The notes: generated by a model not told the origin, from the sequence alone. A DNA stretch of 64,000 nucleotides from an uncultured Flavobacterium sp. (GCA_937876455.1 CALFIG010000254.1:351-64350); one strand, 5' to 3'; positions 9,570-56,168 are shown, counted from the first letter of the stretch. A program made the numbers and translations.

Positions 9570-10394
9570 TTATATTTTGAATGTAATAACAGGTCTTTTA
9601 GAGTGGTTTACTAAATCCTCAGAGATGCTTCCGTTGAAAAAATGCGCTAATCCTTTTCTTCCATGTGTGCACATACCTATTATATCAGAATTCGAATCTT
9701 TGGCAAAATGTAAAATTCCTTTTTCTACATTTAAATCATTATAAATGTGTGTAGAATAGTTTTGAAAATCAAATTCGGCCATAAATTCTTGCATTCTTTT
9801 TTCTGCAATTCTTGAAGGTGAAAAATTATTTGGCGTTGAAATGTTAACCAATTTAATATGTGAGTTAAAACTCTTCGCAAATTCAATAACTTTTGCAAAA
9901 GGTTTTTTAATTTCATCGGAAAAATCAGAGGCAAATACTAAGCTATCTGCTTTGAATGTTTCTTCTTCTTTTTTGATTACGAGTGTAGGTATTGTTGAAT
10001 TTCGAACTACTTTTTCAGCATTAGATCCAATAAACATTTCTTGGAAACCACTTGCGCCATGCGATCCCATAACGATTAAATCTACATTGTGCTTTTCTGC
10101 ATTTTCAATAATGCCTGTAAAAGCCATGTGAAATTGTACTATACTTGAAACTTCAATGCCGTTTAAATAGGTAGATTCTTGTAATTCTTCTAATTTATTA
10201 ACAGCTGCATTTTTAAAAAACATTAATTCAGGTATGTCATGTGCAGTTGATATTGCATCGTTTCCAGATGTTGATAATTCTAACATGTGTAAGATGATAA
10301 TTTTCCCGTTATTTTTTTTTGCGATTTGAGCAGCTACTTTTAAAGCATATTCGGCATGTTTTGAAAAATCTGTAGGGACTAAAATAGTTTTCAT
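9570..10394 (-). CDS. Universal stress protein (tandem UspA domains)
   Basis: MKTILVPTDFS...DLIVMGSHG...GSNAEKVVR and a second domain ending in TH GRKG...GSISEDLV. Confidence 0.93.
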   Translation of the reverse strand: MKTILVPTDFSKHAEYALKVAAQIAKKNNGKIIILHMLELSTSGNDAISTAHDIPELMFFKNAAVNKLEELQESTYLNGIEVSSIVQFHMAFTGIIENAEKHNVDLIVMGSHGASGFQEMFIGSNAEKVVRNSTIPTLVIKKEEETFKADSLVFASDFSDEIKKPFAKVIEFAKSFNSHIKLVNISTPNNFSPSRIAEKRMQEFMAEFDFQNYSTHIYNDLNVEKGILHFAKDSNSDIIGMCTHGRKGLAHFFNGSISEDLVNHSKRPVITFKI

Positions 10395-10483
10395 TGGTAC
10401 TTAATTTTGATTTGTAAATTTCTATACCATAAAATTACAAAATTTATTTTTAACAACTGTTTAAAAATCTTAAAAAATGATAA

Positions 10484-11057: not shown

Positions 11058-12299
11058 ATGGAGAATATTGCATTAATTGAATCATTTTCAGAGTTTAAAG
11101 ACGATAAACTTATAGATAGAGTTACCCTTATGGCAATTCTAGAAGATGTGTTTAGAAATGCTTTGAAGAAAAAATATGGTTCAGATGAAAATTTTGACAT
11201 TATCATAAACCCTGATAAAGGAGATATGGAAATTTGGAGAAATAGAGTCGTTGTTGCAGACGGAGAAGTTGAAGACGAAAATTCTGAAATTTCATTGTCA
11301 GAAGCAAGAAAAATTGAACCAGATTTTGAAGTAGGTGAAGATGTTTCAGAAGAAGTGAAATTAATTGACTTAGGTAGAAGAGCTATTTTAGCTTTACGCC
11401 AAAATTTAATTTCAAAAATTCATGAGCATGATAATACAAATCTTTATAAACAATTTAAAGATTTAATAGGAGATATTTATACTGCTGAGGTACATCATGT
11501 GCGACCAAAAATGGTAGTATTAATGGACGACGATGGAAATGAAATTGTTTTACCAAAAGACAAACAAATTCCAAATGATTTCTTTAAAAAAGGTGAAAAT
11601 GTTCGTGGAATTATTGAAAGTGTAGAATTAAAAGGAAATAAGCCTCAAATAATTATGTCAAGAACTGCTCCAGATTTCTTAGAAAAATTATTTGAACAAG
11701 AAATTCCAGAAGTTTTCGACGGATTAATCACAGTGAAAAAAGTAGTTAGAATTCCAGGTGAAAAAGCAAAAGTAGCCGTAGATTCTTATGACGATAGAAT
11801 TGACCCTGTAGGTGCTTGTGTGGGTATGAAAGGCTCACGTATTCACGGTATAGTTCGCGAATTAGGAAATGAAAATATCGACGTAATTAATTATACAAAC
11901 AACACACAATTATACATAACAAGAGCATTAAGTCCTGCAAAAGTTTCCTCTGTAAAAATTGATGAAGAAAACAAAAAAGCAGAAGTGTTCTTGAAAATTG
12001 AAGAAGTTTCAAAAGCAATCGGGCGTAATGGTCAAAACATTAAATTAGCGAGTCAGTTAACAGGTTATGAATTAGATGTTATTCGCGAAGGAATTGTAGA
12101 AGAGGAGGATGATGTAGAATTAAGAGAATTTACAGACGAAATTGAAGAGTGGATTATTGAAGAATTTGAAAAAATTGGTTTAGATACTGCAAGAAGTATT
12201 TTAGATCAAGATGTAGATGATTTGGTAAGAAGAACAGATCTTGAAGAAGAAACAATTTTGGATGTAATTAGAGTGTTAAAGGAAGAGCTTGAAGGCTAA
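11058..12299 (+). CDS. nusA: Transcription termination/antitermination factor NusA
   Basis: S1 and KH domains: RIPGEKAKVAV, DPVGACVGMKGSRI, AIGRNGQNIKLAS. Confidence 0.98.
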   Translation: MENIALIESFSEFKDDKLIDRVTLMAILEDVFRNALKKKYGSDENFDIIINPDKGDMEIWRNRVVVADGEVEDENSEISLSEARKIEPDFEVGEDVSEEVKLIDLGRRAILALRQNLISKIHEHDNTNLYKQFKDLIGDIYTAEVHHVRPKMVVLMDDDGNEIVLPKDKQIPNDFFKKGENVRGIIESVELKGNKPQIIMSRTAPDFLEKLFEQEIPEVFDGLITVKKVVRIPGEKAKVAVDSYDDRIDPVGACVGMKGSRIHGIVRELGNENIDVINYTNNTQLYITRALSPAKVSSVKIDEENKKAEVFLKIEEVSKAIGRNGQNIKLASQLTGYELDVIREGIVEEEDDVELREFTDEIEEWIIEEFEKIGLDTARSILDQDVDDLVRRTDLEEETILDVIRVLKEELEG

Positions 12300-12380
12300 A
12301 TTCTTAAAAAAACAGAATAAATAATTACCTTTGAGGAAATAAAGACAACACAACAACTAAATTTTAGCAAAATACAATAT

Positions 12381-15185
12381 ATGTCTGAAGAAAGAGCAAT
12401 ACGAATTAATAAAGTCTTAAAAGAATTTAATATTTCATTGGATAGAGCAGTGGAAACACTTAAGGACAAGGGGCACACAATTGAGCACAGTCCTAATGCA
12501 AAAATATCTCAATTGGAGTATGACGTTTTATGTAGTACTTTTTCGGCTGATAAGGGGAACAAAGTAGCCTCTAAAGAAGTAGGTGAGGAAAAGAAAAAAG
12601 AGAAAGAAGCTCTTAAACGTGAAATCGAAAAAGACCTCGAAGAAAAACGTCGCGCTGAAGATGAAAGACAGAAACAAGAAATTATTAAAGCAAAAGCCAC
12701 TGTAACAGGTCCAAAAACACTTGGAAAAATTGAGCTAAATCCAATAAAAGGAGAAGTTGCTGAACAAAAAAATGTTTCGGAAAAACCTGTAGCTAAAATT
12801 GTTGAAAATGCGGTTATAAAAGAAGAAGTAAAATCCGAAAAATCTTCTGAAGCATCAAAATCAGAAACAGAAAAGAAAAAAGTTGCGGAACCAGTTTCAG
12901 TAGTTAAGAAAAAAGAAACCACAACTAATGCACAAGAAAGTGATGATGCATCAATTGATGAAACTATAAAAACCCAATATCAAAAACTTTCAGGTGCTAC
13001 TTTTACAGGACAAACCATTGATTTATCTCAATTTAATAAGCCTAAAAAGAAAAAAGAAGAACCTAAAAAAGATGGTAATCCTGCTGGTACAGGTAATACA
13101 AATCAAGCTGGAGCGAATAACAACAAAAATAAACGCAAAAGAATTACAAAGCCTGCAGGGCCAAATACTGGAGGTGCTGCTAATAATACGCAACAAGGAG
13201 GACAAAGAAAACCATTTGCAGCAGGAAATGATAGATTCAAAAAAGGAGGGCCAAAACCAGCTGTGGCTAAAGTTGAGCCTACAGAAGAAGAAGTTAAAAA
13301 TCAAATCAAAGAGACGCTAGAAAGATTACAAGGAAAAGGTAATAAATCTAAAGCGGCCAAATATAGAAGAGACAAAAGAGATACGCATCGTCAACGTTCA
13401 GAAGACGAACAATTACAACAAGAATTAGAAAGCAAAATCTTAAAAGTAACTGAATTTGTTACAGTTGGAGAAATTGCTACTATGATGGATGTGCCTATTA
13501 CAAAAGTAATTGGAACATGTATGTCTCTAGGCATAATGGTTACCATGAATCAGCGTTTAGATGCAGAAACATTAACTATTGTTGCAGATGAATTTGGGTA
13601 TGAAGTACAATTTATTACAACAGATATTGAAGAAAATATCGAAGTAATAGAAGATAATCCAGAAGATTTAACACATCGTGCGCCAATCGTAACCGTTATG
13701 GGACACGTAGATCACGGAAAGACATCTTTATTAGATTACATTAGAAAAGCAAATGTAATTGCTGGAGAATCAGGAGGAATTACACAACATATTGGCGCGT
13801 ATAGTGTAACTTTAGAAACAGGTCAAAAAATTACATTTTTAGATACACCAGGTCACGAAGCCTTTACAGCTATGCGTGCACGTGGTGCTCAAGTTACAGA
13901 TATCGCTATTATTGTAATTGCTGCAGATGATGATATCATGCCTCAAACAAAAGAAGCAATCAGTCATGCACAAGCAGCGGGAGTTCCTATGATATTTGCT
14001 ATAAATAAAGTAGATAAACAAACTGCAAATCCTGATAAAATCAAAGAAAAATTAGCTTCAATGAACCTTTTAGTGGAAGAATGGGGTGGAAAATACCAAT
14101 CTCATGACATCTCTGCTAAAATGGGAATGGGAGTTACAGAACTTTTAGAAAAAGTATTATTAGAGGCCGAAATATTAGAATTAAAAGCAAATCCAAATAA
14201 ACCGGCACAAGGAACAGTTGTAGAAGCTCAGCTAGATAAAGGACGTGGATATGTTTCTACTATCTTGGTACAAGCAGGGACACTTAAAATTGGCGATTAC
14301 CTTTTAGCTGGTAAAAACCATGGTAAAATCCGTGCCATGTTTGATGAAAGAGGACATACTGTAAAAGAAGCAGGTCCTTCAACACCAGTATCTATCCTTG
14401 GACTAGATGGTGCGCCAACAGCAGGAGATAAGTTTAATGTATATGAAGATGAAAGAGAAGCAAAACAAATTGCTGCAAAACGTACACAATTAATGCGTGA
14501 ACAATCGGTTCGTACACAAAAACATATTACCCTTTCAGAAATTGGGCGCCGTATCGCTTTAGGTCAGTTTAAAGAATTAAACATCATTCTTAAAGGAGAT
14601 GTGGACGGTTCAGTAGAAGCATTATCTGATTCATTCTCTAAATTATCAACGGAAGAAATTCAAATTAATATTATACATAAAGGAGTTGGAGCAATTACAG
14701 AATCTGACGTATTATTAGCGTCTGCTTCAGATGCTATTATTATTGGATTTAATGTTCGTCCTGCTGGAAATGCAAAAGCATTAGCTGAAAAAGAAGAAAT
14801 TGATATCCGAAATTATTCTATTATTTATGCAGCTATTGATGATTTAAAAGATGCAATGGAAGGCATGCTTTCTCCAGAATTAAAAGAAGAAATTACAGGT
14901 ACTGCCGAAATTAGAGAATTGTTTAAAGTTTCTAAAGTAGGAACAATTGCTGGATGTATGGTTACAGATGGTAAAGTAATTCGCAGTAACAGAATCCGAT
15001 TAATTAGAGAAGGGGTTGTTATTTTTACAGGAGAATTGGTTGCTTTAAAACGTTTCAAAGACGATGTAAAAGAAGTATCTAAAGGATACGATTGTGGTAT
15101 GCAAATTAAAGGATACAATGATATTAAGGAATACGATATTATTGAAAGTTTCCACGAAGTCGAAGTAAAGAAAAAATTAAAATAA
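12381..15185 (+). CDS. infB: Translation initiation factor IF-2
   Basis: [13 protein letters not shown] and NKVD G motifs, long charged N-terminus, C-terminal VSKGYDCG. Confidence 0.99.
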
Positions 15186-43420: not shown

Positions 43421-43428
43421 TATCTTTG
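43421..43428 (+). promoter_or_regulatory. -7 element (TATCTTTG) directly before ruvB
   Basis: TAnnTTTG match only 5 nt before the ATG at 43434. Confidence 0.6.
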
Positions 43429-43433
43429 TGTTT

Positions 43434-44456
43434 ATGAATGAACATTTAGACCCAACTCAGGACAATTTTTCTCCGCAAGATTTAGATATTGAGCGCGCTT
43501 TGCGTCCGCTTAGTTTTGATGACTTTGCAGGACAAGAACACATTCTTGAAAACTTAAAAATTTTTGTAAAAGCCGCTAATCTCAGAGGTGAAGCTCTAGA
43601 TCATGCGCTTTTTCATGGTCCACCTGGGTTAGGAAAAACAACACTTGCCACTATCTTAGCTGGTGAGTTAGGTGTAGGGATAAAAATTACATCGGGGCCG
43701 GTACTCGATAAACCAGGCGATTTGGCGGGTTTGTTAACAAATTTAGAACCTCGAGATGTTTTGTTTATAGACGAAATTCATCGATTGTCTCCCGTAGTAG
43801 AAGAATATTTGTACTCCGCTATGGAAGATTATAAAATTGACATCATGATAGAAAGTGGACCTAATGCACGTACGGTCCAAATCAATTTGAATCCGTTTAC
43901 ACTTGTAGGAGCTACCACGCGTTCAGGGTTATTAACAGCACCAATGCGAGCGCGTTTTGGAATCCAAAGCAGGCTGCAATATTACAACAAAGAACTCTTA
44001 GCCACAATTGTAGAACGAAGCGCTTCCATTTTAAATGTGCCTATTGACCTTGATGCGGCTATTGAAATTGCAGGCCGAAGCAGAGGTACGCCACGTATTG
44101 CAAATGCTTTACTTAGACGCGTACGTGATTTTGCACAAATAAAAGGCAACGGGTCTATTGATACCGAAATTGCACGCTATGCGCTCAAGGCACTTCACGT
44201 AGATGCACACGGTCTTGATGAAATGGATAATAAAATTTTAACTACAATCATTGACAAATTTAAAGGAGGCCCTGTCGGACTTACGACACTGGCAACTGCT
44301 GTAGGCGAAAATGGCGAAACATTAGAAGAAGTGTACGAACCTTTTTTAATTCAAGAAGGGTTCTTAATGCGCACTCCACGAGGCAGAGAAGTAACCGAAA
44401 AAGCATACAAGCATTTAGGGAAAATAAATACCAATATTCAAGGCGGATTGTTTTAA
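43434..44456 (+). CDS. ruvB: Holliday junction branch-migration helicase RuvB
   Basis: [51 protein letters not shown]. Confidence 0.98.
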
Positions 44457-44565
44457 GTGTGACAAACTGTTTAATTTAAATTTGAAAGGTTTACTTTTTT
44501 TTACCTTTATTCTTTTGAATTAATGAATAAAACGTTGGCTTTTAAGGCAAAATTAAACTAAGATT

Positions 44566-44628
44566 TATCAAGCATCAAACACCCAACACCCAACATCAAG
44601 CACCCAACATCAAACATCAAACATCAAA
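44566..44628 (+). repeat. Nine-unit 7-bp tandem array (CATCAAA / CACCCAA / CATCAAG)
   Basis: TATCAAG CATCAAA CACCCAA CACCCAA CATCAAG CACCCAA CATCAAA CATCAAA CATCAAA. Confidence 0.9.
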
Positions 44629-44631
44629 ATT

Positions 44632-45561
44632 CTGATTTCTAAATCCACATATACAAATTCAATAAAAGAAAAGGCTTTATCACTTGGCTTTTTGTCTTGT
44701 GGCATTTCTCGTGCCGAATTTTTAGAGCAAGAAGCACCGCGTTTAGAAAAATGGCTCAATGAAAACCGTCATGGACAAATGAGCTATATGGAAAATCATT
44801 TTGACAAACGGTTAGATCCCAGATTGCTTGTTGATGGTGCAAAAAGCGTTATTTCGTTGCTGTTAAATTACTATCCAACGGAGCAACAAAATCCTAATAG
44901 TTACAAAATTTCAAAATATGCATATGGCGAAGATTACCATTTTGTTATTAAGGAAAAATTAAACGCTTTATTGCAGTTTATTCAGCAAGAAATAGGCGAA
45001 GTAAACGGGAGAGTTTTTGTAGATTCTGCTCCTGTATTAGATAAGGCCTGGGCAGCAAAAAGCGGACTTGGCTGGGTGGGTAAAAACAGCAATTTAATTA
45101 CACAAAAAGTAGGGTCGTTTTATTTTATTGCCGAATTAATTGTAGATCTTGAATTAGCCTATGACACACCCACAACAGACCATTGTGGTACCTGCACGGC
45201 TTGTATAGATGCTTGTCCAACGGAGGCTATTGTAGCGCCTTATGTCGTTGACGGCAGTAAATGCATTTCTTATTTTACAATAGAATTAAAAGAGAATTTG
45301 CCCGAAGACATGAAAGGCAAGTTTAACGATTGGATGTTTGGATGTGATGTGTGTCAAGATGTATGTCCATGGAATAAATTTGCTACACCACATCAAGAAC
45401 CTTTATTTCATCCCAAACCCGAATTGCTTGATTTCACAAAAAGAGATTGGGAAGAACTTACCCAAGAAACGTTTCATAAAGTATTTAAAAATTCGGCAGT
45501 AAAGCGCACTAAATTTGAGGGCTTGACGCGAAATATTAGTTTTTTAAACAAGGCTAAGTAG
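44632..45561 (+). CDS. queG: tRNA epoxyqueuosine(34) reductase QueG (start uncertain: CTG 44632 or TTG 44692)
   Basis: [59 protein letters not shown]. Confidence 0.95.
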
Positions 45562-46570
45562 ATTCTCGTTCAATAATCGTCGTGTCTAGTTCAATTGTTT
45601 TTGGCGAAAAAGTAATGCCTTTTTTCTTTGCATTAATTTCTTCTAACAAAACATTGAATGCCTGTTTGCCCATTTCAAAACTAGGTTGGTCAACGGTGCT
45701 TAATTTTGGCGAAACTACTTGCGACATAAACCAATTACTAAATCCTATAAGTTTTATGTCTTCGGGTACTCGAATTTTGTGATCGTTAAAGTAGGCTAAT
45801 ACACCCACAGCAACTAAATCGGTAATGGCAAAAATACCATCGACATCGGGATGACTCGCAATGATTTGTTCGGCAAAAGTTTTACCTTCTTCAAAAGTAA
45901 CATCTGTGCAGGTATAAACTAATTTAGGGTCAAAAGAAATGTTATGATCTTCTAATGCTTTTTTATAGCCTAAAAAACGGTCAATTGCATTTTGCGGGTT
46001 TACGGGTCCACGAATATGAGCAATTTTTTTGCAGCCTTTTGCAATTAAATGAGATACGGCATGATAAGCAGCCTTTTGGTCATTAATAATCACTTTAGAA
46101 CTAGGAATGAGTTTAGATATTTTATCAAATTGTACTAGCGGAATCTCTTTTGTAATAATTTGTGATAAATAGGTTTCGTTATTTGACTCATTAGACAGTG
46201 AAATAATAATTCCATCGACACGTTTTTGCACCAAGAGTTCTATTTGTTTTTTTTCAGACGCTACCGATTCACTACTTTGTAGGATGATAACTAAATAACC
46301 GTTTTTTTCGGCTTCTTCAATAATCCCTCTAATTACGTTTGAAAAAAAATGGTGCACCACTTCAGGAATCACTAAGCCAATGGTTTTTGATTCTTGTGTG
46401 CGAAGATTTACGGCAAAACTATTGGGCATATATTGAAGACGTTCAGCCAATTCTAAAACCGACTTTCTTGTGTTTTCATTCACATCGGTATATCCTTTTA
46501 AGGCTTTTGAAACCGTAGTTATGGATATGCCTAATGTTTCCGCAATTTGTTTTAGCGTTATGTTTTTCAT
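45554..46570 (-). CDS. LacI-family transcriptional regulator
   Basis: [37 protein letters not shown] hinge, periplasmic-binding-like effector domain. Start at the ATG at 46570. Confidence 0.96.
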
Positions 46571-46603
46571 TTTACAAATATGCAAAAAAAATAAATACGT
46601 AAT

Positions 46604-46639
46604 CGAAAACGTTTTCGGTAATTTCGAAAACGTTTTCGA
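46604..46639. promoter_or_regulatory. Tandem LacI-type operators CGAAAACGTTTTCG
   Basis: Two perfect 14-bp palindromes with a central CG at 46604-46617 and 46625-46638, centres 21 bp apart, between the divergent lacI and TBDR genes. Confidence 0.85.
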
Positions 46640-46724
46640 TAAATTATTCGCATTTTTTTACTACAATAAATTTTAATTTCGAATTTAATTATAACTAAAA
46701 TTATTAACCAATTAATTTTAAAAA

Positions 46725-49364
46725 ATGAAAAAAATTACTAATTTTTTGAAGAAAACGTTTTTTATTGTAGCAATATTATTGCTTAATCAAGCGTTTGCTC
46801 AAAATGGTTCGTTATCAGGAAAAGTAACGGATACGAATGGTTTTCCAATCAGTGGAGCAAGTGTTTCTGTTGGTTCAAAAGCGACTTCCACTTCATCAAA
46901 TGGAGATTTTACACTTACTGATTTGTCAAATGGTTCGGTTACCGTAAAAGTTTCGATGATGGGCTATGCTACTTTACAACAAAAAGTAGTTATTAATGGC
47001 GCTACTACTGCCACTTTCAAATTAGCTGACAAATCAGCTTCAATTGATGAAGTAGTAGTAACGGGAGTTATTGGAGCTAAAACAAAATTAAACTCAAGTG
47101 TTTCTGTAAGTTCTATCAGCGGCGCGCAAATAGAACAAGCAGCTCCAAGATCTACAGCTGAAATTTTTAGATCTACTCCTGGTATCAAATCAGAATCTAC
47201 AGGAGGTGAAGGTAATGCAAATATTACCGTTCGTGGTATTCCAATTGCTTCAGGAGGAGCAAAATTTTTACAAATTCATGAAGATGGTTTACCTGTAATG
47301 CAGTTTGGTGACGTAGCATTTGGTAACGCAGATATCTTCGTAAGAGCAGATCAAACATTACAAAGAGTTGAAGCCATCAGAGGAGGTTCTGCATCTACTG
47401 TAGCATCAAACTCTCCAGCGGGTATCATCAACTTTATTAGTAAAGATGGTAAAAAAGAAGGAGGTTCATTAATGCAATCTATTGGTTTAGATTACGGAAA
47501 TAACAGAACAGATTTTGAATACGGTTCGCCATTATCTTCTAGCTTGCGTTTTCACGTAGGTGGTTTTTACAGACAAGGTGAAGGACCAAGAAATGCGGGT
47601 TATACAGCAAACTTAGGAGGTCAGTTTAAAGCAAATTTAACAAAAGACTTTGAAAATGGTTATGTAAAATTGTATTTCAAATACCTAAATGATAAATCAA
47701 TAGGTTATTTACCTATGCCAGTTCAAGTATCAGGAACAAATGCTAATCCAACATGGAGTTCATTACCAAATTTCAACATTTTACATGACACGCCTCATAG
47801 TGCTTATTTCCAAGATAATTTAACAATAGGTGCTGATGGTGAGCGTAGAAGAAGTTCAATTTCGGATGGTATGCGTCCTATTGCTACTTCATTTGGAGCA
47901 GAAATGGCTTTTGATTTAGGAAATGACTGGAAAATTGAAGATAAATTCAGACAAAATTTCCAAAAAGGAAGATTTGTTTCTTTATTCCCTGCAGAAGTAG
48001 CAACAGGTGGTGCTTTAGCATCTAGCTTTAGCGTGCCAAATTTAACTTATGCAAACGGTCCACAAGCAGGCCAAAACTTTAGCAATAGTGCGTTAGCAAT
48101 GAGAATTCATACATTTGATACTGAAATTAATAATTTCAACAACTTTACAAATGATATGAAATTAACTAAGAAATTTAACAATTTCGATTTAACATTAGGA
48201 TACTATAAAGCATTCCAAAACATTTCAATGTCTTGGTTATGGAATTCTTATTTAATGGAAGTTAAGGGAGATAACGCAGCATTATTAAATGCAGGCGCAA
48301 ATTCTGTAAACGGATTATATGCATATGGTGTGCCAGCATGGGGTAACTGTTGTACAAGAAACTATAATGCTACTTATGATATAACTGCACCATATGTTGC
48401 AGGACAATTAAAAGCAAATGACAAATTAAGCATTGATGTAAGTATGCGTTTTGATTCTGGAAAAGCACGTGGAACTTATGCAGGTGCTACACAATCTACA
48501 AATTTAGATGTGGATAATAATGGAACTATACAAGGACCAGAAGCTAGTGTTTCTGTAGTTGATAATGCAAATAGAAAACCAATCAATTATGATTTTAAAT
48601 ATGTATCATACTCTTTTGGTGCAAATTATTTATTATCTGATTCACAATCTGTTTTTGGACGTTTCAGTAGAGGAGGTAGAGCAAATGCTGACCGTTTATT
48701 ATTTGGTGCTAACATCTTAAATTCAGGTGCAGCAGTTCCAGGTTTAAGTGCAGATATGGTAAATCAAGCAGAATTTGGATTTAAACAAAAAGGTGAAAGA
48801 TCGGCTATTTATGCTACAGCATTCTTTGCAGGTGTTTCTGAGCAAAATTGGGATTTCGGTGGAGGTTCAAGTGGAATCAGACAAATTCAAAGAAAATATA
48901 ATTCATATGGTTTAGAATTAGAAGGAAATTATAGAGTGAATAATTTCTCTATAAACGGTAGTGTTACCTATACAAAAGCAAAAATTGCTAACGATGTAAT
49001 TACACCATCATTAAATGGAAATAAACCAAGAAGACAAGCTGATTTTATCTTTAATGTTGTGCCAATGTATAAATTTGGTAAAAACAAACAAAATAACTTT
49101 GGTTTCTCAGTAATTGGAACAACAAAATCATATGCACAAGACGATAATAAGTTAGTTATGCCAGGTTATGCATATGTAAATCCATTCTTGAGTTTTGAAT
49201 TAACAAAAGGACTTTCTGCTACACTTAATATCAATAACGTATTTGATACGATGGGTATTACAGAAGTGGAAGAAGGAAGTATTACTGAAAATACTAACAA
49301 TATTGTTAGAGCAAGATCTATTAACGGTAGAACAACATCATTGTCTATCGCATATAGATTCTAA
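46725..49364 (+). CDS. TonB-dependent receptor, probably for sucrose or a related sugar (no SusD partner)
   Basis: Signal peptide, carboxypeptidase-regulatory-like N-domain, TonB box DEVVVTG, plug (EAIRGGSAS), C-terminal GRTTSLSIAYRF, and locus context. Confidence 0.9.
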   Translation: MKKITNFLKKTFFIVAILLLNQAFAQNGSLSGKVTDTNGFPISGASVSVGSKATSTSSNGDFTLTDLSNGSVTVKVSMMGYATLQQKVVINGATTATFKLADKSASIDEVVVTGVIGAKTKLNSSVSVSSISGAQIEQAAPRSTAEIFRSTPGIKSESTGGEGNANITVRGIPIASGGAKFLQIHEDGLPVMQFGDVAFGNADIFVRADQTLQRVEAIRGGSASTVASNSPAGIINFISKDGKKEGGSLMQSIGLDYGNNRTDFEYGSPLSSSLRFHVGGFYRQGEGPRNAGYTANLGGQFKANLTKDFENGYVKLYFKYLNDKSIGYLPMPVQVSGTNANPTWSSLPNFNILHDTPHSAYFQDNLTIGADGERRRSSISDGMRPIATSFGAEMAFDLGNDWKIEDKFRQNFQKGRFVSLFPAEVATGGALASSFSVPNLTYANGPQAGQNFSNSALAMRIHTFDTEINNFNNFTNDMKLTKKFNNFDLTLGYYKAFQNISMSWLWNSYLMEVKGDNAALLNAGANSVNGLYAYGVPAWGNCCTRNYNATYDITAPYVAGQLKANDKLSIDVSMRFDSGKARGTYAGATQSTNLDVDNNGTIQGPEASVSVVDNANRKPINYDFKYVSYSFGANYLLSDSQSVFGRFSRGGRANADRLLFGANILNSGAAVPGLSADMVNQAEFGFKQKGERSAIYATAFFAGVSEQNWDFGGGSSGIRQIQRKYNSYGLELEGNYRVNNFSINGSVTYTKAKIANDVITPSLNGNKPRRQADFIFNVVPMYKFGKNKQNNFGFSVIGTTKSYAQDDNKLVMPGYAYVNPFLSFELTKGLSATLNINNVFDTMGITEVEEGSITENTNNIVRARSINGRTTSLSIAYRF
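46751..46761. promoter_or_regulatory. Possible auxiliary operator inside the TBDR coding start
   Basis: GAAAACGTTTT matches the operator core, with its centre 125 bp from operator 2. Confidence 0.45.
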
Positions 49365-49391
49365 CAAAGATTTTTCATACTTAAATTTATG

Positions 49392-49431
49392 CAATTCCTG
49401 TATCTCTTTTTTGGGTACAGGAATTGTTTTT
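49392..49431 (+). terminator. Intra-operon hairpin/terminator after the TBDR
   Basis: CAATTCCTGTA...TACAGGAATTG 11-bp stem followed by TTTTT. Confidence 0.65.
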
Positions 49432-49446
49432 CAAATGTCAGTCAAG

Positions 49447-49809
49447 ATGAGTGTAAAAAAAATAATTTGCATCCTATTATTTTTTATTGGACTACCTGTT
49501 GTTTCTGCACAAGAAAAGACAAAGCAAAAAGAGCCTAAATCAACAGTATTAATTGTATATGGTAGCGATTCTTGTCACCATTGTATAGACACAAAATTAT
49601 TTTTAAAGAATAATTCAATTAATTTTGTGTTTTATGATATTGATAAAGATCCTGTTGCCTTAAAAGAAATGTTGGCTAAATTAAAAGAAGCAAATATAAG
49701 TACGGCTAATTTAGGGATTCCAGTAGTAGATAAACAAGGACAATTTATTATAAATAACGGTAATTTTGAAGACTTTTTAAACAAACTCAAAGATGATACT
49801 AAAAAGTAA
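49447..49809 (+). CDS. Exported glutaredoxin-like protein (CHHC)
   Basis: Signal peptide MSVKKIICILLFFIGLPVVSAQ, then VYGSDSCHHCIDTK...YDIDKD...GIPVV, an NrdH/glutaredoxin-like pattern. Start placed at the ATG at 49447. Confidence 0.8.
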   Translation: MSVKKIICILLFFIGLPVVSAQEKTKQKEPKSTVLIVYGSDSCHHCIDTKLFLKNNSINFVFYDIDKDPVALKEMLAKLKEANISTANLGIPVVDKQGQFIINNGNFEDFLNKLKDDTKK

Positions 49810-51118
49810 ATTGAGCTTTTGGCAAATAATAAATATGAATGTTGGGTTTTTTGGCATTCAATACAGCTTTGGCTTACAGCAGAGTGCGGTAAATCCTATT
49901 TATGATTTCTTAGGCGCTAGCCCAGATGAATTACCCTTATTAAATTTGGCAGGACCTTTGACGGGGTTACTTATTCAACCTATTATTGGTGCTTTAAGTG
50001 ATAAAACATGGTTACCAAAATGGGGAGGAAGAAGAAAACCCTATTTTTTTATTGGGGCATTAATCTGTAGTATCGCCTTATTTTTATTTCCATTTAGTAG
50101 CTCTTTATGGATGGCTGCCGGATTGTTATGGATTTTAGATGCCGGAAACAATACCGCAATGGAACCTTATAGAGCATTCATTGCAGATAAATTAGATGAA
50201 GAACAACAGCCTACAGGCTTTCAAGCACAAAGTTTTTTTACAGGTTTAGGCCAAACATTAGCTAACGTGTCGTTATTTATTTTTCCTATACTTTTTGTAG
50301 GAACAACAGGTAAATTACCCACATGGGTTTTTGCTTCTTTTTTCTTGGGCGCTGTGTGTTCTATTGCCTCTGTTTGGTGGAGTGCACACACTACAAAAGA
50401 AATTCCTCCTACCGATGAAGAAGTGCTTCAAATGCAAGCGGAAAAAGGAAGTCTTTTAACCCCTTTTATTGATATAGTTAAAGCTATCGTTGAGATGCCA
50501 AAAGTAATGTGGCAATTAGCATTAGTGTATTTATTTCAGTGGTATGCCTTATTTTGTTATTGGCAAAATTCCTCAAAAAGTATTGCCTTATCTGTTTGGA
50601 ACACAACGCCGCAACAAAACAGTAAGTTATATGAACAAGCGGTGAGTTGGACGGGTTTGGTAAATGGTTGGTACAATATTGTTACCTTTTTAACCGCCTT
50701 TGGATTGGCTTATTTAGCCAAAAAATATTCAGCTAGATATGTGCATTTTATATGTTTACTACTTGCAGCAATTGGGTTTTTAATTTTTCCATACATAACG
50801 AATAAATACCTTTTATTTCCCGCCATAACTGGTTTTGGAATTGGTTGGGCAAGCATGATGGGAATTCCTTATTTAATGGTAGTTTCAAACATACCTAAAG
50901 AACGCTACGGGGTTTACATGGGAATTATTAATATGATGATTGTTATTCCTATGTTTATTCAAACCTTGAGTTTTGGATACATTTTAAAACATTTTTTACA
51001 TAATGATCCCCGACAAGCTATTGTATTTGCGGGTGTTTTATTAGCAATTGCAGCCATTTTAACTTTGTTTATCAAATCAAAAAAATCTCAAGTACGTGCA
51101 GACAATAACCTATCATAA
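49793..51118 (+). CDS. MFS sugar transporter (SLC45/SUC/MalY-like sucrose-maltose symporter)
   Basis: LSFWQIINMNVGFFGIQYSFGLQ, QPIIGALSD.TW...GRRKPY, MEPYRAFIAD, GVYMGIINM. Confidence 0.9.
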   Translation: MILKSKLSFWQIINMNVGFFGIQYSFGLQQSAVNPIYDFLGASPDELPLLNLAGPLTGLLIQPIIGALSDKTWLPKWGGRRKPYFFIGALICSIALFLFPFSSSLWMAAGLLWILDAGNNTAMEPYRAFIADKLDEEQQPTGFQAQSFFTGLGQTLANVSLFIFPILFVGTTGKLPTWVFASFFLGAVCSIASVWWSAHTTKEIPPTDEEVLQMQAEKGSLLTPFIDIVKAIVEMPKVMWQLALVYLFQWYALFCYWQNSSKSIALSVWNTTPQQNSKLYEQAVSWTGLVNGWYNIVTFLTAFGLAYLAKKYSARYVHFICLLLAAIGFLIFPYITNKYLLFPAITGFGIGWASMMGIPYLMVVSNIPKERYGVYMGIINMMIVIPMFIQTLSFGYILKHFLHNDPRQAIVFAGVLLAIAAILTLFIKSKKSQVRADNNLS

Positions 51119-52271
51119 AGCAGTTGATTTATTAAAAAGAGTAAGTACTCCACATGGTTTTTTAGCTAGTGCAGAAGCAACGTCTAATTATCAACGTGTT
51201 TGGGCTAGAGACGGTGTAATTTGTGGTTTAGCTGCATTGGCCTCTGGCGACAAAGCACTTATTGCCACATTTGAATCCACGTTAGAAACCTTGGCTACAT
51301 ACCAGCATGAAATAGGCACTATTCCTTCTAATGTATGGATTAAAGAAAATAAAGTCGAAATAAGTTATGGCGGATTAGCAGGTCGTGTAGATGCGGTTTC
51401 TTGGTTTGTTATAGGCGTATGTCAATTAGCCATTTATAAAAACGATATAAAGATTATTGAAAAACACCAAGTACATATTGAAAAATGTTTGCAGTTACTC
51501 AATGCTTGGGAATACAATAATAAAGATTTAGTATATGTGCCTTTGTCTGGAAATTGGGCTGATGAATACATAACAGATGGCTATGTGTTGTATGATCAAT
51601 TACTTCGTTTATGGGCATTAAGAAGTTATACTTTTTTTCAAAAAAAAGAATCTTTAGTAGAAAAAATTGTACGTGTTACGCAGCAAATACAAGCTAATTT
51701 TTTACCTCATTCCAATGAAGAAAAATTTCACGAGCGGGCGTATGCTAATGTGAAATTTGAAGCGTATCTCCCTTGTTCATTTTCGCCTTCAGGCTATAAG
51801 ACACAATATGACGCATTTGCTAATGCCCTTTTTGTATTGTTAGAGATTGGGAATGAAAGCACAACTGAAGCCATTTGTAACCACGCTATTAACGTCGCTG
51901 CAGATACAGAATTGAAGTTGGTTCCTGCGTTTTGGCCACCTATTTTTGAACAAGATACGTACTGGAATTTGTTAAAAGATAATTGTAAATATGAATTTAG
52001 AAATTATCCTTACGAGTTTCATAACGGTGGGTCTTGGCCAATGGTAAATGGATTTGTGGGATTATCGTTGCTGAAACAAAATAAAACATTAGCTACTTCA
52101 TTACTGACTCATATAAATGAGGCCAATGCTAAAGTAGATTTTTCGTTTTATGAAAATTTCAATACACAAACACAAGAACCAAACGGTGTCGCTTTTTGTG
52201 CCTGGAGTGCCGCCGCAACAATAATTTTAGAACAGGCAATACAGGAAAAATTCAACTTATTTTTTAATTAG
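51096..52271 (+). CDS. Glycoside hydrolase, GH100-like (alkaline/neutral invertase), cytoplasmic
   Basis: NYQRVWARDG and PYEFHNGGSWP motifs of (alpha/alpha)6-barrel GH100-type enzymes. No signal peptide. Confidence 0.75.
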   Translation: MQTITYHKAVDLLKRVSTPHGFLASAEATSNYQRVWARDGVICGLAALASGDKALIATFESTLETLATYQHEIGTIPSNVWIKENKVEISYGGLAGRVDAVSWFVIGVCQLAIYKNDIKIIEKHQVHIEKCLQLLNAWEYNNKDLVYVPLSGNWADEYITDGYVLYDQLLRLWALRSYTFFQKKESLVEKIVRVTQQIQANFLPHSNEEKFHERAYANVKFEAYLPCSFSPSGYKTQYDAFANALFVLLEIGNESTTEAICNHAINVAADTELKLVPAFWPPIFEQDTYWNLLKDNCKYEFRNYPYEFHNGGSWPMVNGFVGLSLLKQNKTLATSLLTHINEANAKVDFSFYENFNTQTQEPNGVAFCAWSAAATIILEQAIQEKFNLFFN

Positions 52272-52284
52272 AAGACTTATAAAA

Positions 52285-53211
52285 TTGAAAACAATAGATA
52301 TTATTTGTATTGGAGAAGTGCTCATCGACTGTATTGGTCATAAAGTGGATACATCCATTTGTCAAACAAAAAACTACCATAGATTTTTGGGAGGTTCGCC
52401 CACGAATGTGGCTGTGAATGCATCAAAACTTGGCTTGAACTCCTTGCTTGTAGCTACTTGTGGCAAAGATGGTTTCGGAGACTACATTGTTGAAAAATTA
52501 CAAAAAAATGGAGTAGATTGTTCCTCTTTACGACAAGACGAAACACATCCAACATCTGTAATTTTTGTTTCCAAATCTACAACGACACCAGACTTTGTTG
52601 CTTATAGACAAGCTGATGCCCAAATTTTGGAGTCGCAAGTGGCAGAGGAAAAACTTAAGCAGGCTAAAATTTTTCATACGACCTGTTTTGCGCTGAGTAA
52701 AAATCCAGCGCAACAAACAATATTAACATTGGCTAAAAAAGCGCAATCATTGGGTTTACAAACAAGTATTGATATTAATTATGCTGAAAAAATATGGCCC
52801 AATAAGGAAGAAGCTAAAGCAGTAATTGCATCCTATTTGCAAACAAACCCAATCGTAAAATTAAGCGAAGATGATTGTTTAAGATGGTTTGGGGAAGAAA
52901 AAACAGACGCCTTTATATTTAATTATTTTCATAGTTTAGGCGCACAATTAATTTGCTTCACAAAAGGCAAAAAGGGAGTGGTGGTTTCAGAGGAAGGAAA
53001 GCAACCTTATGTGCAACCTGCACTAGCTATTGATGAAATTAAAGATGCAACAGGCGCAGGAGATGCGTTTTGGACAGGATTTTTATATAGCCAAATTTTT
53101 AAAAAATCTTTAGACGAAAGCGTTGCGCTTGCTCAAAAATTAGCTGCAATTAAACTCCAAAGTGTTGGTAAGCTGCCTGAAGATTTTACGATAGAAGATT
53201 TGGTATTTTAA
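52285..53211 (+). CDS. PfkB-family carbohydrate kinase (fructokinase-like)
   Basis: GGSPTNVA, GKDGFG, DATGAGDAF. Confidence 0.9.
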   Translation: MKTIDIICIGEVLIDCIGHKVDTSICQTKNYHRFLGGSPTNVAVNASKLGLNSLLVATCGKDGFGDYIVEKLQKNGVDCSSLRQDETHPTSVIFVSKSTTTPDFVAYRQADAQILESQVAEEKLKQAKIFHTTCFALSKNPAQQTILTLAKKAQSLGLQTSIDINYAEKIWPNKEEAKAVIASYLQTNPIVKLSEDDCLRWFGEEKTDAFIFNYFHSLGAQLICFTKGKKGVVVSEEGKQPYVQPALAIDEIKDATGAGDAFWTGFLYSQIFKKSLDESVALAQKLAAIKLQSVGKLPEDFTIEDLVF

Positions 53212-53261
53212 GTAGAGTCAAAAGTATTTCATTAATTCTTTTCTTATTTCATTGCTTCTTT

Positions 53262-53269
53262 TATCTTTG
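53262..53269 (+). promoter_or_regulatory. -7 element (TATCTTTG) for maeB-ruvA-sprA
   Basis: TAnnTTTG match 23 nt upstream of the maeB ATG. Confidence 0.6.
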
Positions 53270-53292
53270 TAAGTTGATAGAATTGTAAGTAT

Positions 53293-55581
53293 ATGCAAAA
53301 TAACAATAAGAGAAGAGAAGCACTTTTATATCACGCAAAGCCTACACCGGGTAAAATTCAGGTAGTGCCAACAAAAAAGTATGCTACACAAAGGGATTTG
53401 TCATTAGCTTATTCACCAGGTGTGGCAGAGCCTTGTTTAGAAATTGCAAAAGACGTAAATAATGTATATAAATATACAGCAAAAGGTAATTTAGTAGCTG
53501 TTATCACAAACGGAACGGCGGTTTTAGGTTTAGGAGACATTGGTCCAGAAGCTTCAAAACCCGTAATGGAAGGAAAAGGGTTATTGTTTAAAATCTTTTC
53601 TGATATTGATGTTTTTGACATTGAAGTAGGAACAAAAGATATTGAAGAATTCATTGCAACAGTAAAAAATATTGCGCCCACTTTTGGAGGCATTAATTTA
53701 GAAGATATTAAAGCTCCCGAATCTTTTGAAATAGAAAGAAGACTCGTTGAAGAATTGGATATTCCTATCATGCACGATGATCAACACGGAACAGCGATTA
53801 TCTCTTCGGCGGCATTATTAAATGCATTAGAATTAGCACAAAAAGACATTTCTAAAGTTAAAGTGGTTATTTCGGGCGCAGGTTCGGCAGCATTGGCATG
53901 TGCTAATTTATACGCACTTTTAGGTGTCAAAGAAGAAAACGTGTACATGTTTGATGTAAATGGTTTGCTTACCACTTGCAGAGAAGACATTTCAGACTTA
54001 CAAAAACACTATGCAAAATCATGCGATCCTGCTCCATTAAGCGAAATGATTAAAGGTGCAGATGTGTTTTTAGGGCTTTCTGTAGGGAACATTTTAACCC
54101 CAGAAATGTTGTTAACCATGGCAAATGACCCTATTGTTTTTGCAATGGCTAATCCAGTCCCAGAAATAGATTATAATGTTGCTATAAACACGCGCGAGGA
54201 TATTATTATGGCTACAGGCCGTTCAGATTACCCTAATCAGGTTAATAATGTATTAGGATTCCCTTATATTTTTAGAGGCGCATTAGACGTTAGAGCAAAG
54301 AAAATTAACGAAGCTATGAAAATGGCTGCGGTTCATGCTTTAGCCGAGCTAGCTAAAACGCCAGTTCCAGAGCAAGTAAATATTGCTTATGGAGAGAAAA
54401 AATTAATTTTTGGTAGGGATTATATCATTCCTAAGCCATTTGATCCAAGGTTAATTTCAACTATTTCTCCTGCGGTCGCTAAAGCGGCTATTGCATCAGG
54501 GGTAGCACAATATGAAATTCAAGATTGGGATAAATATGCCGATGAATTATTAGAACGTTTAGGGGCAGATAATAAAATTGTAAAATTGCTTACAAATCGA
54601 GCTAAAACAGATCCTAAACGCATAGTTTTTGCAGAGGCAGATCATTTAGATGTGTTAAAAGCGGCTCAAATTGTTCAGGAGGAAGGTATTGGTTTCCCAA
54701 TATTACTCGGAAATCTTGAAATCATACAAGAATTAAAAGAAGAAATTGGTTTTGATGCTGATGTCCCAATTATCGACCCAAAATCAAAAGAAGAGGACAA
54801 ACGCAGAGAAAAATATGCGCAATATTTTTGGAAAACAAGACAACGAAGAGGAATATCTTTATTAGATGCTCAAAAATGGATGCGTGAACGTAATTATTTT
54901 GCCTCAATGATGGTAAATACGGGTGATGCAGATGCTTTAGTTACGGGTTATTCTAGAAGTTATCCAAATGTGGTTAAACCTGTAATGCAATTAATAGATA
55001 AGCAACAAGGTGTAGGCAGAATTGCCACAACAAACATCATGAATACGAAGCGTGGACCTTTGTTTTTATCAGATACGGCTATTAATCCTAATCCAAGCGC
55101 TGAAGATTTGGCCAAGATTGCATTAATGACAGCAAAAACAGTTAGAATGTTTGGAATTGAACCTGTTATTGCGATGATTTCGTTTTCAAATTTTGGTTCT
55201 TCGTCAGACGATAGTCCAATTAAAGTGAGACAAGCAGTTAAATACTTACATGATAATCATCCAGAGTTAATTGTTGATGGAGAAATTCAAACCGATTTTG
55301 CTTTAAATCCTGATATGCTTAAAAGTAAGTTTCCATTTTCAAAATTAGCGAATAAAAAAGTAAACACGCTGATTTTTCCTAATCTAGATGCGGCTAATAT
55401 TACCTATAAAATGCTTAAAGAATTAGACAAAGTCGTTTCTATTGGGCCAATTATGCTAGGATTAGAAAAACCAGTTCATATTTTTCAATTAGGAGCAAGT
55501 GTAGAAGAAATGGTAAACATGGCTGCAGTTGCTGTAGTTGATGCACAAGAAAAAAATAAAAAACAACATCAAAAAGCTTAA
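53293..55581 (+). CDS. maeB: NADP-dependent malic enzyme with C-terminal phosphotransacetylase-like domain
   Basis: LSLAYSPGVA, NGTAVLGLG, INLEDI, HDDQHGT, GAGSAA, TGRSDYPNQVNN, and a PTA-like C-domain (VDGEIQTD, IFPNLDAANI). Confidence 0.96.
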   Translation: MQNNNKRREALLYHAKPTPGKIQVVPTKKYATQRDLSLAYSPGVAEPCLEIAKDVNNVYKYTAKGNLVAVITNGTAVLGLGDIGPEASKPVMEGKGLLFKIFSDIDVFDIEVGTKDIEEFIATVKNIAPTFGGINLEDIKAPESFEIERRLVEELDIPIMHDDQHGTAIISSAALLNALELAQKDISKVKVVISGAGSAALACANLYALLGVKEENVYMFDVNGLLTTCREDISDLQKHYAKSCDPAPLSEMIKGADVFLGLSVGNILTPEMLLTMANDPIVFAMANPVPEIDYNVAINTREDIIMATGRSDYPNQVNNVLGFPYIFRGALDVRAKKINEAMKMAAVHALAELAKTPVPEQVNIAYGEKKLIFGRDYIIPKPFDPRLISTISPAVAKAAIASGVAQYEIQDWDKYADELLERLGADNKIVKLLTNRAKTDPKRIVFAEADHLDVLKAAQIVQEEGIGFPILLGNLEIIQELKEEIGFDADVPIIDPKSKEEDKRREKYAQYFWKTRQRRGISLLDAQKWMRERNYFASMMVNTGDADALVTGYSRSYPNVVKPVMQLIDKQQGVGRIATTNIMNTKRGPLFLSDTAINPNPSAEDLAKIALMTAKTVRMFGIEPVIAMISFSNFGSSSDDSPIKVRQAVKYLHDNHPELIVDGEIQTDFALNPDMLKSKFPFSKLANKKVNTLIFPNLDAANITYKMLKELDKVVSIGPIMLGLEKPVHIFQLGASVEEMVNMAAVAVVDAQEKNKKQHQKA

Positions 55582-55586
55582 TTCTG

Positions 55587-56168
55587 ATGATTGCACACAT
55601 ACAAGGAAGATTAGTTGAAAAAACACCTACGCACGTAGTGATTGATTGTGGAGGAGTAGGGTATCATATTAATATTTCTTTACATACCTATTCGCAGCTA
55701 GGAGACGCTGAAAATTGTAAATTGTTTACTTTTTTACAAATTAAGGAAGACGCTCATTCTTTATACGGTTTTGCAGAAAAAAAAGAACGAGAATTGTTTA
55801 AATTATTGCTTTCTGTATCGGGAGTAGGAGCAAGCACTGCGCGTACTATGTTGTCTTCTTTAGCGCCAGAGCATATCATTCAGTCTATTGCTTCTAATGA
55901 TGTTGGGACGATTCAATCTATAAAAGGAATTGGAGCAAAAACCGCTCAAAGGGTAATCTTAGATTTGAAAGATAAAGTAATAAAATTGTATCAAATTGAA
56001 GAAATTTCAGACACTTCATACAATACAAATAGAGAAGAAGCGTTATCTGCATTAGAAGTTTTAGGTTATGTGAGAAAAAATGCCGAGAAAGTAATAGAAA
56101 AAATTTGTATTGAACAGCCTGATGCATCAGTTGAAGAATTAATAAAACAAGCTTTAAAAGCCTTATAA
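55587..56168 (+). CDS. ruvA: Holliday junction DNA-binding protein RuvA
   Basis: VVIDCGGVGY, LYGF, VSGVGAS, IKGIGAKTAQR, EALSALEVLGY. Confidence 0.97.
   Translation: MIAHIQGRLVEKTPTHVVIDCGGVGYHINISLHTYSQLGDAENCKLFTFLQIKEDAHSLYGFAEKKERELFKLLLSVSGVGASTARTMLSSLAPEHIIQSIASNDVGTIQSIKGIGAKTAQRVILDLKDKVIKLYQIEEISDTSYNTNREEALSALEVLGYVRKNAEKVIEKICIEQPDASVEELIKQALKAL

Follow-up and report, generated by a model that had tools for sequence, protein, structure and literature searches.

In the bacterial periplasm, DsbL/DsbI (with an arylsulfate sulfotransferase) and SrgA (with the fimbrin PefA) are dedicated disulfide oxidoreductases that are encoded next to their clients. Here we analyze 64,000 nucleotides of DNA from an uncultured Flavobacterium sp. 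(GCA_937876455.1 CALFIG010000254.1:351-64350; hereafter the window, with positions counted from its first letter), in which the gene for an exported glutaredoxin-fold CxxC protein, referred to here as the redoxin, directly follows that of a TonB-dependent receptor (TBDR) whose only two cysteines are adjacent. With a probability of roughly 55%, we propose that the redoxin is a dedicated periplasmic oxidoreductase acting on the receptor's vicinal cysteines, likely in the oxidizing direction. Like DsbL/DsbI and SrgA, it is an exported CxxC protein of the thioredoxin superfamily located in the operon of an apparently single client. Unlike them, it has a minimal glutaredoxin fold of ~95 residues that lacks DsbA's helical insert, and a DsbB- or DsbI-like partner is absent here; its client would be an outer-membrane β-barrel, and the bond would join adjacent residues.

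The sux locus of Xanthomonas comprises the LacI-family repressor SuxR, the TBDR SuxA, the major facilitator superfamily (MFS) symporter SuxC and the sucrose hydrolase SuxB (PMC1790865, PMC12798719). Compared by parts and logic, the Flavobacterium locus shares with it a divergent LacI gene, a TBDR, an MFS sucrose-type symporter and a cytoplasmic sucrose-cleaving enzyme, which by gene content places it among the sux-type loci; in addition, distant relatives of its receptor that carry the cysteine pair (CC receptors) adjoin MFS genes and sucrose enzymes of glycoside hydrolase (GH) families GH68 and GH13. In contrast to sux, the hydrolase is GH100-like rather than an amylosucrase-type GH13 enzyme, a fructokinase gene is also present, a CarboxypepD_reg domain stands at the N terminus of the receptor, and the redoxin is inserted between the receptor and the MFS transporter. 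The redoxin gene is not described in either sux paper (PMC1790865, PMC12798719), and PMC12798719 does not mention cysteines or disulfides. A search for literature linking a glutaredoxin to a TonB-dependent sugar receptor found none. As read from its genes, the locus is a sux-like operon for sucrose uptake and catabolism.

The receptor gene (46725-49364, plus strand) encodes 879 residues with matches to Pfam Plug, TonB_dep_Rec_b-barrel and CarbopepD_reg_2. Behind its signal peptide, the product has a CarboxypepD_reg-like domain at the N terminus, then a plug and a barrel of 22 strands with ...YRF at the C terminus, and the plug, the strand number and the terminal aromatic residue are those of TBDRs. 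It does not belong to the SusC/RagA family, as its score against TIGR04056 is 72 bits versus a cut-off of 368 and covers only the N-terminal domain; downstream of the receptor, no SusD-like open reading frame (ORF) is present, the redoxin and then the MFS transporter being encoded there. Exactly two cysteines occur in the protein, at residues 542 and 543 within YGVPAWGNCCTRNY (motif stretch WGNCCTRNY), encoded by TGTTGT at 48348-48353 on the plus strand. The chance that two randomly placed residues would be adjacent is ~2/879, or 0.2%. The mature receptor contains no cysteine besides this pair, and the pair is invariant in every full-length receptor ortholog that adjoins a redoxin.

The redoxin gene lies at 49447-49809 on the same strand. 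The ORF was listed mechanically from a TTG at 49243, and alignment with 19 homologs set the start at the ATG at 49447, with 49435 as a possible alternative. Its 120-residue product begins with an N-terminal signal peptide, MSVKKIICILLFFIGLPVVSAQ (~49447-49512), followed by the active site CHHC (49573-49584), and the mature part comprises ~95 residues. Against PF00462 (Glutaredoxin) the protein scores 34.5 bits, above the cut-off of 22.9. The core of its AlphaFold model has a predicted local distance difference test (pLDDT) score above 90, and the top Foldseek matches to the model are glutaredoxins, NrdH and T4 Grx. Strands 35-39, 60-64, 90-96 and 99-103 and helices 44-55, 69-81 and 107-118 follow the β-α-β-α-β-β-α order of the glutaredoxin fold, with helix 1 beginning at the CxxC and with a cis-Pro loop. 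C43, H44, C46, the D-T-K after the motif and P92, the candidate cis-Pro (49720-49722), are invariant in an alignment of 20 sequences, and the family motif reads YGSxxC-H-[Y/H/F]-C-x-D-T-K. An N-terminal signal peptide is present in all 104 orthologs, whose active sites are CHYC (49), CHHC (44), CHFC (7), CHSC (2) and CHNC (1), with the one further ortholog, L120, carrying CHYC at the aligned site. Rare active sites in metagenome loci, CDVC (L155) and CYYC (L189, L190), indicate that the first X is not strictly His. A few marine orthologs (L072, L117) have L-S-C at the end of the signal peptide, a possible lipobox, and judged by this motif they may be lipoproteins rather than soluble periplasmic proteins. 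The protein falls below the cut-offs of the NCBIfam glutaredoxin equivalogs (TIGR02181, 25.8 of 90 bits; YruB, 34.2 of 88.6; NrdH, 21.1 of 85.8) and is thus outside the classical glutathione-dependent glutaredoxin, NrdH and YruB groups; unlike the cytoplasmic classical glutaredoxins, it also bears an export signal. It is also not a member of the DsbA family, with no match to PF01323 or PF13462 and no room for the helical insert at ~95 residues. The earlier note on this DNA had pointed to the adjacency of the receptor's only two cysteines, to a following gene for a signal-peptide-bearing, glutaredoxin-like CHHC protein and to the overlap of its stop with the MFS start. The first stands at C542-C543 of the 879-residue ORF, the second was confirmed by PF00462, the model and the homolog alignment, and the overlap amounts to 17 nt.

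Relatives of the redoxin recovered by protein search comprise ~100 cluster representatives, all of them short and positive for the Pfam glutaredoxin family. Those with a named source are almost all from Flavobacteriaceae; one is labeled Aquirufa. When one genome per species was scanned, 123 relatives came up, of which 80 loci were kept, and the order LacI(-)/TBDR/Grx/MFS/(GH100)/PfkB is found in 80/80. The host genome itself contains one redoxin and one CC receptor. On this distribution, the redoxin is confined essentially to Flavobacteriaceae and to one operon. One 5.1-kb contig (L039, CALRKC020000215.1) carries the full Flavobacterium-type receptor/redoxin/MFS/GH100 set in a metagenome-assembled genome labeled Erythrobacter sanguineus and is probably mis-binned.

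The redoxin and the cysteine pair co-vary. Unbiased, receptor-centered sampling of 401 genomes from the phylum and 401 from the family gave 40 orthologous loci besides the window. Among these, CC receptors are accompanied by a redoxin in 24 loci and lack one in 9, and all 7 receptors without cysteines (Cys-less) lack one. When all data sets are combined, each redoxin-bearing locus with a readable receptor encodes the pair (~109/109; 75 redoxin-centered, 24 receptor-centered, 9 metagenomic and the window), and a redoxin stands beside 0/12 orthologous Cys-less receptors. The co-occurrence of CC receptors with the exported redoxin, expected in the earlier note, therefore holds in one direction, the redoxin being found only with CC receptors, and fails in the other, as 9/33 CC receptors have none. 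No redoxin ortholog was found elsewhere in the nine CC genomes without an adjacent one; two weak, paralog-level matches at ~1e-10 were returned. The Cys-less receptors are encoded in the same operon, with ~95-150 nt between receptor and MFS genes in most. Two of the 24 loci with both the pair and the redoxin look frameshifted in the redoxin. In L093 (G219:C1, gap 10000-10440) the redoxin is broken by a frameshift and stops, and in L099 (G753:C4) the frameshift lies at an A-run and could be a sequencing error; both receptors still have the pair. These two loci may be snapshots of redoxin loss ahead of cysteine loss.

A maximum-likelihood tree of the receptors requires at least four changes in the pair, and seven with the metagenome rows included, of which six are forced by well-supported branches. 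The pair was lost at least four times independently on the way to the Cys-less forms, in every case with no redoxin present. The approximately unbiased (AU) test, applied to a tree constrained to unite the Cys-less receptors, a group defined after the data were seen, rejected their single origin (delta lnL 370, p-AU 1e-6). The redoxin was lost ~10 times on the same tree and was never kept with a Cys-less receptor. When the comparison is restricted to independent pairs, the redoxin goes the same way as the cysteines in 4-5 and the opposite way in 0. Taken from sequence comparison, this pattern suggests that the redoxin depends on the cysteine pair, that the pair has no strict need of the redoxin, and that the cysteines are lost only where the redoxin is absent. 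The pairing of redoxin and CC receptor is thus supported by comparative evidence that goes beyond the proposal of the earlier note.

A same-genus genome (L089; G147:C7:502000-519000) allows a direct comparison with positions 43428-56168 of the window. The operon sits between the same flanks in both, with ruvB and a QueG-like gene on one side and malic enzyme and ruvA on the other. Identities to the window are 72% for LacI, 61% for GH100 and 62% for PfkB, with 49% for the receptor and 53% for the MFS transporter. L089 has no redoxin, and Leu takes the place of the two cysteines. By these identities, the receptor-(redoxin)-MFS segment seems to have been replaced as one cassette.

Cassette inheritance or exchange could itself produce the co-variation, with the redoxin unrelated to the receptor cysteines and serving another client (such as the MFS transporter or an envelope protein encoded elsewhere) or acting as a periplasmic accessory outside redox chemistry. 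We regard this as rather improbable. It is favored by the apparent travel of receptor, redoxin and MFS genes as a unit (the L089 receptor at 49% versus LacI at 72%), by a sign test on the independent pairs that does not reach significance, and by the position of the redoxin stop (TAA, 49807-49809), which in the window lies 17 nt within the MFS ORF (ATG at 49793). The overlap is not conserved, however, most orthologous loci having a gap of a few nucleotides instead. Against an unrelated role, the CxxC and cis-Pro are (near-)invariant in more than 100 orthologs, which argues for redox chemistry, the pair provides the only cysteines of the mature receptor, and despite ~10 losses of the redoxin it is never retained beside a Cys-less receptor. 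The host genome also contains no redoxin paralog or second locus. The transporter was rejected as a client: its cysteines are variable, lie in hydrophobic context (by inspection) and are equally frequent with and without the redoxin, so that they do not track it, and both MFS types described below are found with a redoxin. The other operon products have no signal peptide, as judged by reading their sequences, which leaves the receptor as the one plausible client within the operon.

All Cys-less orthologs read WGN-L-[A/H/N/Q]-RNY versus WGNCC-[T/Q]-RNY, such that a single Leu stands in for both cysteines and the loop is shorter by one residue. Local gene conversion was considered as the origin of the shared WGN-L and rejected: a tree of 140 flanking columns without the motif still needs 4 changes, 2 of them forced by well-supported branches, and because it still separates the WGN-L forms, conversion of one segment is less likely than convergence. 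A vicinal disulfide forms a compact, non-polar eight-membered ring. Replacement of the pair by a single bulky aliphatic residue is what would be expected if such a disulfide were the functional form. In Bt1762, the SusD-type protein for levan, the vicinal disulfide C298-C299 packs against a fructose of the bound ligand (PMC7782687). The two cases have in common a Cys-Cys pair in a Bacteroidota outer-membrane apparatus for uptake of fructan- or sucrose-type sugars, which in Bt1762 offers, and here would offer, a non-polar surface to a fructose unit. The pair of Bt1762 belongs to the SusD lid lipoprotein, however, whereas here it belongs to the barrel protein itself and its contact with the sugar is putative.

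Most likely, the cysteine pair of the receptor would form a vicinal disulfide that acts as a hydrophobic ring in the sugar-contacting surface. The redoxin would be a thiol-disulfide oxidoreductase of the periplasm dedicated to this locus, with the pair as its sole client, and would meet the unfolded receptor during periplasmic transit, ahead of insertion by the β-barrel assembly machinery (BAM). It would most probably donate its CxxC disulfide, so that the strained vicinal disulfide is made cleanly. The redoxin would improve this process without being essential to it, and after its loss a receptor would keep the pair or exchange it for Leu. The comparisons show the order of the genes, the export signal, the fold, the CxxC, its conservation and the co-variation of redoxin and pair; from these we infer that the pair is oxidized and faces the substrate, and likewise which way the reaction runs and where the oxidant comes from. 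The earlier note had proposed a dedicated oxidoreductase that forms or maintains the receptor's disulfide; the pairing of the two proteins has gained comparative support, while any necessity of the redoxin has not, given the many CC receptors that lack one.

Such chemistry has a precedent. Glutaredoxin 3, when artificially exported to the periplasm of E. coli, can form disulfides in a DsbB-independent manner (Eser et al. 2009, as cited in PMC12453122), and an exported glutaredoxin acting as a DsbB-independent oxidase makes the proposed reaction plausible. Both proteins have the glutaredoxin fold and a periplasmic location, and disulfide formation would in both be independent of DsbB. In the account cited there, however, the E. 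coli protein is engineered and depends on glutathione disulfide, whereas the redoxin is naturally exported and has no evident glutathione-binding motifs. A more far-reaching version holds that in Flavobacteriaceae without DsbA, DsbB or VKOR an exported glutaredoxin-fold enzyme exists solely to install one vicinal disulfide, a hydrophobic residue made by redox chemistry in the sugar site and repeatedly swapped for leucine once the enzyme is lost. We advance this client-specific form of oxidative folding tentatively, and consider it somewhat more likely to be wrong than right.

The redox background of the envelope bears on the direction of the reaction. The host genome, which is 96% complete, has no match to DsbA, Thioredoxin_4, DsbB or VKOR, and encodes a DsbD-type transporter of reductant (C155:3263-3901; L209). 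Its other TBDRs contain 0-6 cysteines, none with the WGNCC motif, which fits an envelope that largely avoids disulfides. Across 41 genomes with the locus, DsbB is found in 0/41 and VKOR in 6/41, with DsbA-like domains in a scattered minority, and none of the three correlates with the state of the cysteine pair or the presence of the redoxin. For want of such a correlation over the 41 genomes, the idea of the redoxin as a stand-in for a missing Dsb system was discarded. CC receptors without a redoxin must be oxidized spontaneously or by other means, or must work reduced.

These observations lend some weight to the opposite chemistry on the same client, in which a redoxin kept reduced by DsbD would act as a reductase or isomerase that protects the reactive thiols in periplasmic transit. 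It would guard them against mixed disulfides, sulfenylation or metal capture, or would resolve wrong intermolecular disulfides, and the final state of the pair would be set after insertion at the surface. DsbD is present, no DsbB or VKOR is there to re-oxidize a CxxC protein, and even where a genome lacks a detectable oxidase, CC receptors do without the redoxin; from this it follows that oxidation may be spontaneous and that the help needed may be protection. The co-variation fits this scheme equally well. In contrast, the convergent change from CC to Leu suggests that the pair functions as a hydrophobic disulfide, and forming one takes oxidation. An aromatic residue or His before the second Cys is common to the more oxidizing motifs of DsbA, DsbC and PDI, and the C-H-[Y/H/F]-C of the redoxin shares this feature, although it is not decisive. 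On balance we consider a protective reductase unlikely, but a serious contender.

The position of the pair in the receptor was assessed on an AlphaFold model with a mean pLDDT of 69, in which most of the barrel lies at 70-90 and the plug remains unmodeled (pLDDT 25-35). Foldseek matched this model to FoxA, FhuA and PiuA with E values of 1e-26 to 1e-23; the closest solved structures are siderophore receptors at ~15% identity, none of them close. DSSP assigned 22 strands, ten of the connections being short turns (2-5 residues) and eleven being longer loops. When parity is counted from strand 1, residues 513-544 correspond to extracellular loop L5, which is modeled with low confidence. The pair is found at the C-terminal end of L5, two residues ahead of strand β10, and pLDDT is below 50 at residues 537-542. 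The model thus points to an extracellular placement of the pair in L5. In an extracellular loop, the pair could be reached by a periplasmic protein only before membrane insertion, as is envisaged for the dedicated oxidoreductase above.

This placement is hard to reconcile with the suggestion of the earlier note that redox state is coupled to sugar uptake, which found no support, as the modeled loop is beyond periplasmic reach once the receptor is inserted. A switch of this kind would have the pair of the mature receptor toggle between dithiol and disulfide, with the redoxin operating it and thereby tying sucrose uptake to the redox state of the envelope. Vicinal disulfides do serve as redox or conformational switches in some proteins, and the pair and the redoxin co-vary. 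Strand parity, however, places the pair outside the cell, and the redoxin has a plain signal peptide with no feature for surface export in most orthologs, such that the outer membrane separates the enzyme from its folded client and makes a reversible switch on the mature receptor unlikely. Leu, which cannot switch, is repeatedly tolerated, and many CC receptors have no redoxin. Taken together, we consider a switch very improbable.

The cysteine pair extends well beyond the Flavobacterium operon. In a library of 50%-identity cluster representatives, [W/F]-G-x-C-C occurs at the aligned site in ~60 of the 150 best matches, usually as the only mature cysteines, and the remaining matches of the 150 have no cysteine at that site. 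Identities of these distant CC receptors fall to ~30%, and in many of them the N-terminal domain is missing. Scanning metagenomes with the distant CC forms as seeds gave 80 loci, with a CC receptor in 69/80 and a redoxin in 9/80, all 9 of them in a Flavobacteria-type operon. The other metagenomic CC loci are different sugar loci with LacI and variously MFS or PfkB-like kinase genes. Downstream enzymes were checked in three of the distant CC loci and are GH68 in two metagenome loci and GH13 in L092. When an exported CxxC neighbor was looked for beside CC receptors in proteobacterial-type loci, only spurious ORFs were found. By its distribution, the pair is thus old and widespread and marks a broad sugar-receptor family, apparently of sucrose type, most members of which function without a redoxin.

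Several observations weigh against a dedicated, oxidizing redoxin. The 9/33 CC receptors of the receptor-centered sample that have no redoxin imply that it is an accessory and not a requirement, and to these are added ~60 CC receptors in proteobacterial-type loci with neither a redoxin nor an exported CxxC neighbor. The redoxin-less CC genomes of Flavobacteriaceae also mostly lack matches to DsbA-like proteins, DsbB and VKOR. No re-oxidizing partner was identified, and DsbD supplies reductant. Upon inspection of the alignment, canonical glutathione-binding motifs are not evident in the redoxin, which reads GIPVV where TVP would be expected and lacks GG-x-DD. Because the plug and residues 537-542 are poorly modeled in the receptor, we infer the disulfide and its position relative to the pocket rather than read them from the model. 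The Cys-less group was defined after the data were seen, and a conservative sign test on the independent pairs gives p = 0.06-0.125, the pairs being too few for significance.

The conserved pair provides a handle on the binding site of TonB-dependent sugar receptors that are not of the SusC/SusD type and are poorly understood, and W/F-G-x-C-C can serve as a sequence marker for a sucrose-type receptor family across several locus architectures. To our knowledge, naturally exported glutaredoxin-fold proteins have barely been described. If the proposed function is true, an exported glutaredoxin with a single client, in genomes where no Dsb system is recognizable, would show how nearly Cys-free envelopes handle a rare, needed disulfide. 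The repeated replacement of CC by Leu amounts to a natural experiment. The locus occurs commonly in Flavobacteriaceae of fresh and marine waters, bacteria that are major consumers of sugars from algae and plants.

The remaining genes of the locus are consistent with sucrose uptake. At 33% GC and with its nearest loci in Flavobacterium, the organism is a Flavobacterium-like member of the Flavobacteriaceae. Divergent from the operon, the LacI-family repressor (45554-46585, minus strand; Pfam LacI and Peripla_BP_1/3/4) keeps its position and orientation, and the locus its arrangement, in all related loci examined with sufficient flanking sequence. Downstream of the redoxin, all on the plus strand, follow an inner-membrane MFS transporter of the GPH/sucrose-symporter type (49793-51118; Pfam MFS_1), a GH100-like cytoplasmic glycosidase resembling alkaline/neutral invertases (51096-52271; Pfam Glyco_hydro_100) and a PfkB-family sugar kinase, a candidate fructokinase (52285-53211; Pfam PfkB, 9.4e-48). 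The transporter matches NCBIfam GPH_sucrose at 3.7e-24 yet falls under its cut-off, as does the kinase with fructokinase PRK09434 at 2.7e-38. The Glyco_hydro_100 match has 35.8 bits versus a cut-off of 23.6 and covers only the C-terminal part of the glycosidase. Sucrose is the substrate suggested by these weak GPH_sucrose, GH100 and fructokinase matches together with the GH13 and GH68 neighbors of related receptors.

Between the receptor stop and the redoxin start, RNA folding identified a stem-loop followed by a U-run (49391-49432, plus strand) that resembles an intrinsic terminator or attenuator, with 15 predicted pairs and UUUUU. Its folding energy of -20.1 kcal/mol (z = -4.3) was equaled by 0/200 shuffles; a simple terminator scan did not include it among its predictions. 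The element could be a partial terminator or could stabilize the mRNA, raising expression of the receptor relative to the downstream genes.

Two types of MFS transporter occur in otherwise orthologous loci (L002-L128), with ~74-89% and ~50-55% identity to that of the window, and they are mixed regardless of receptor clade or redoxin presence. The sucrose-cleaving enzyme is likewise interchangeable between loci, being GH100-like in Flavobacterium. In marine orthologous loci a GH13 enzyme takes the place of the GH100-like one; at least L090, a locus without GH100, encodes a 578-residue protein of GH13 type by Pfam (12067-13803), and L093 has a similar 578-residue ORF. In L092, from a genome of another class (G280), an amylosucrase-like GH13 enzyme (11889-13811) is found with an SSF transporter, and a GH68 levansucrase/invertase is present in two loci of proteobacterial-type architecture, L187 (5227-6309) and L188 (8563-9687).

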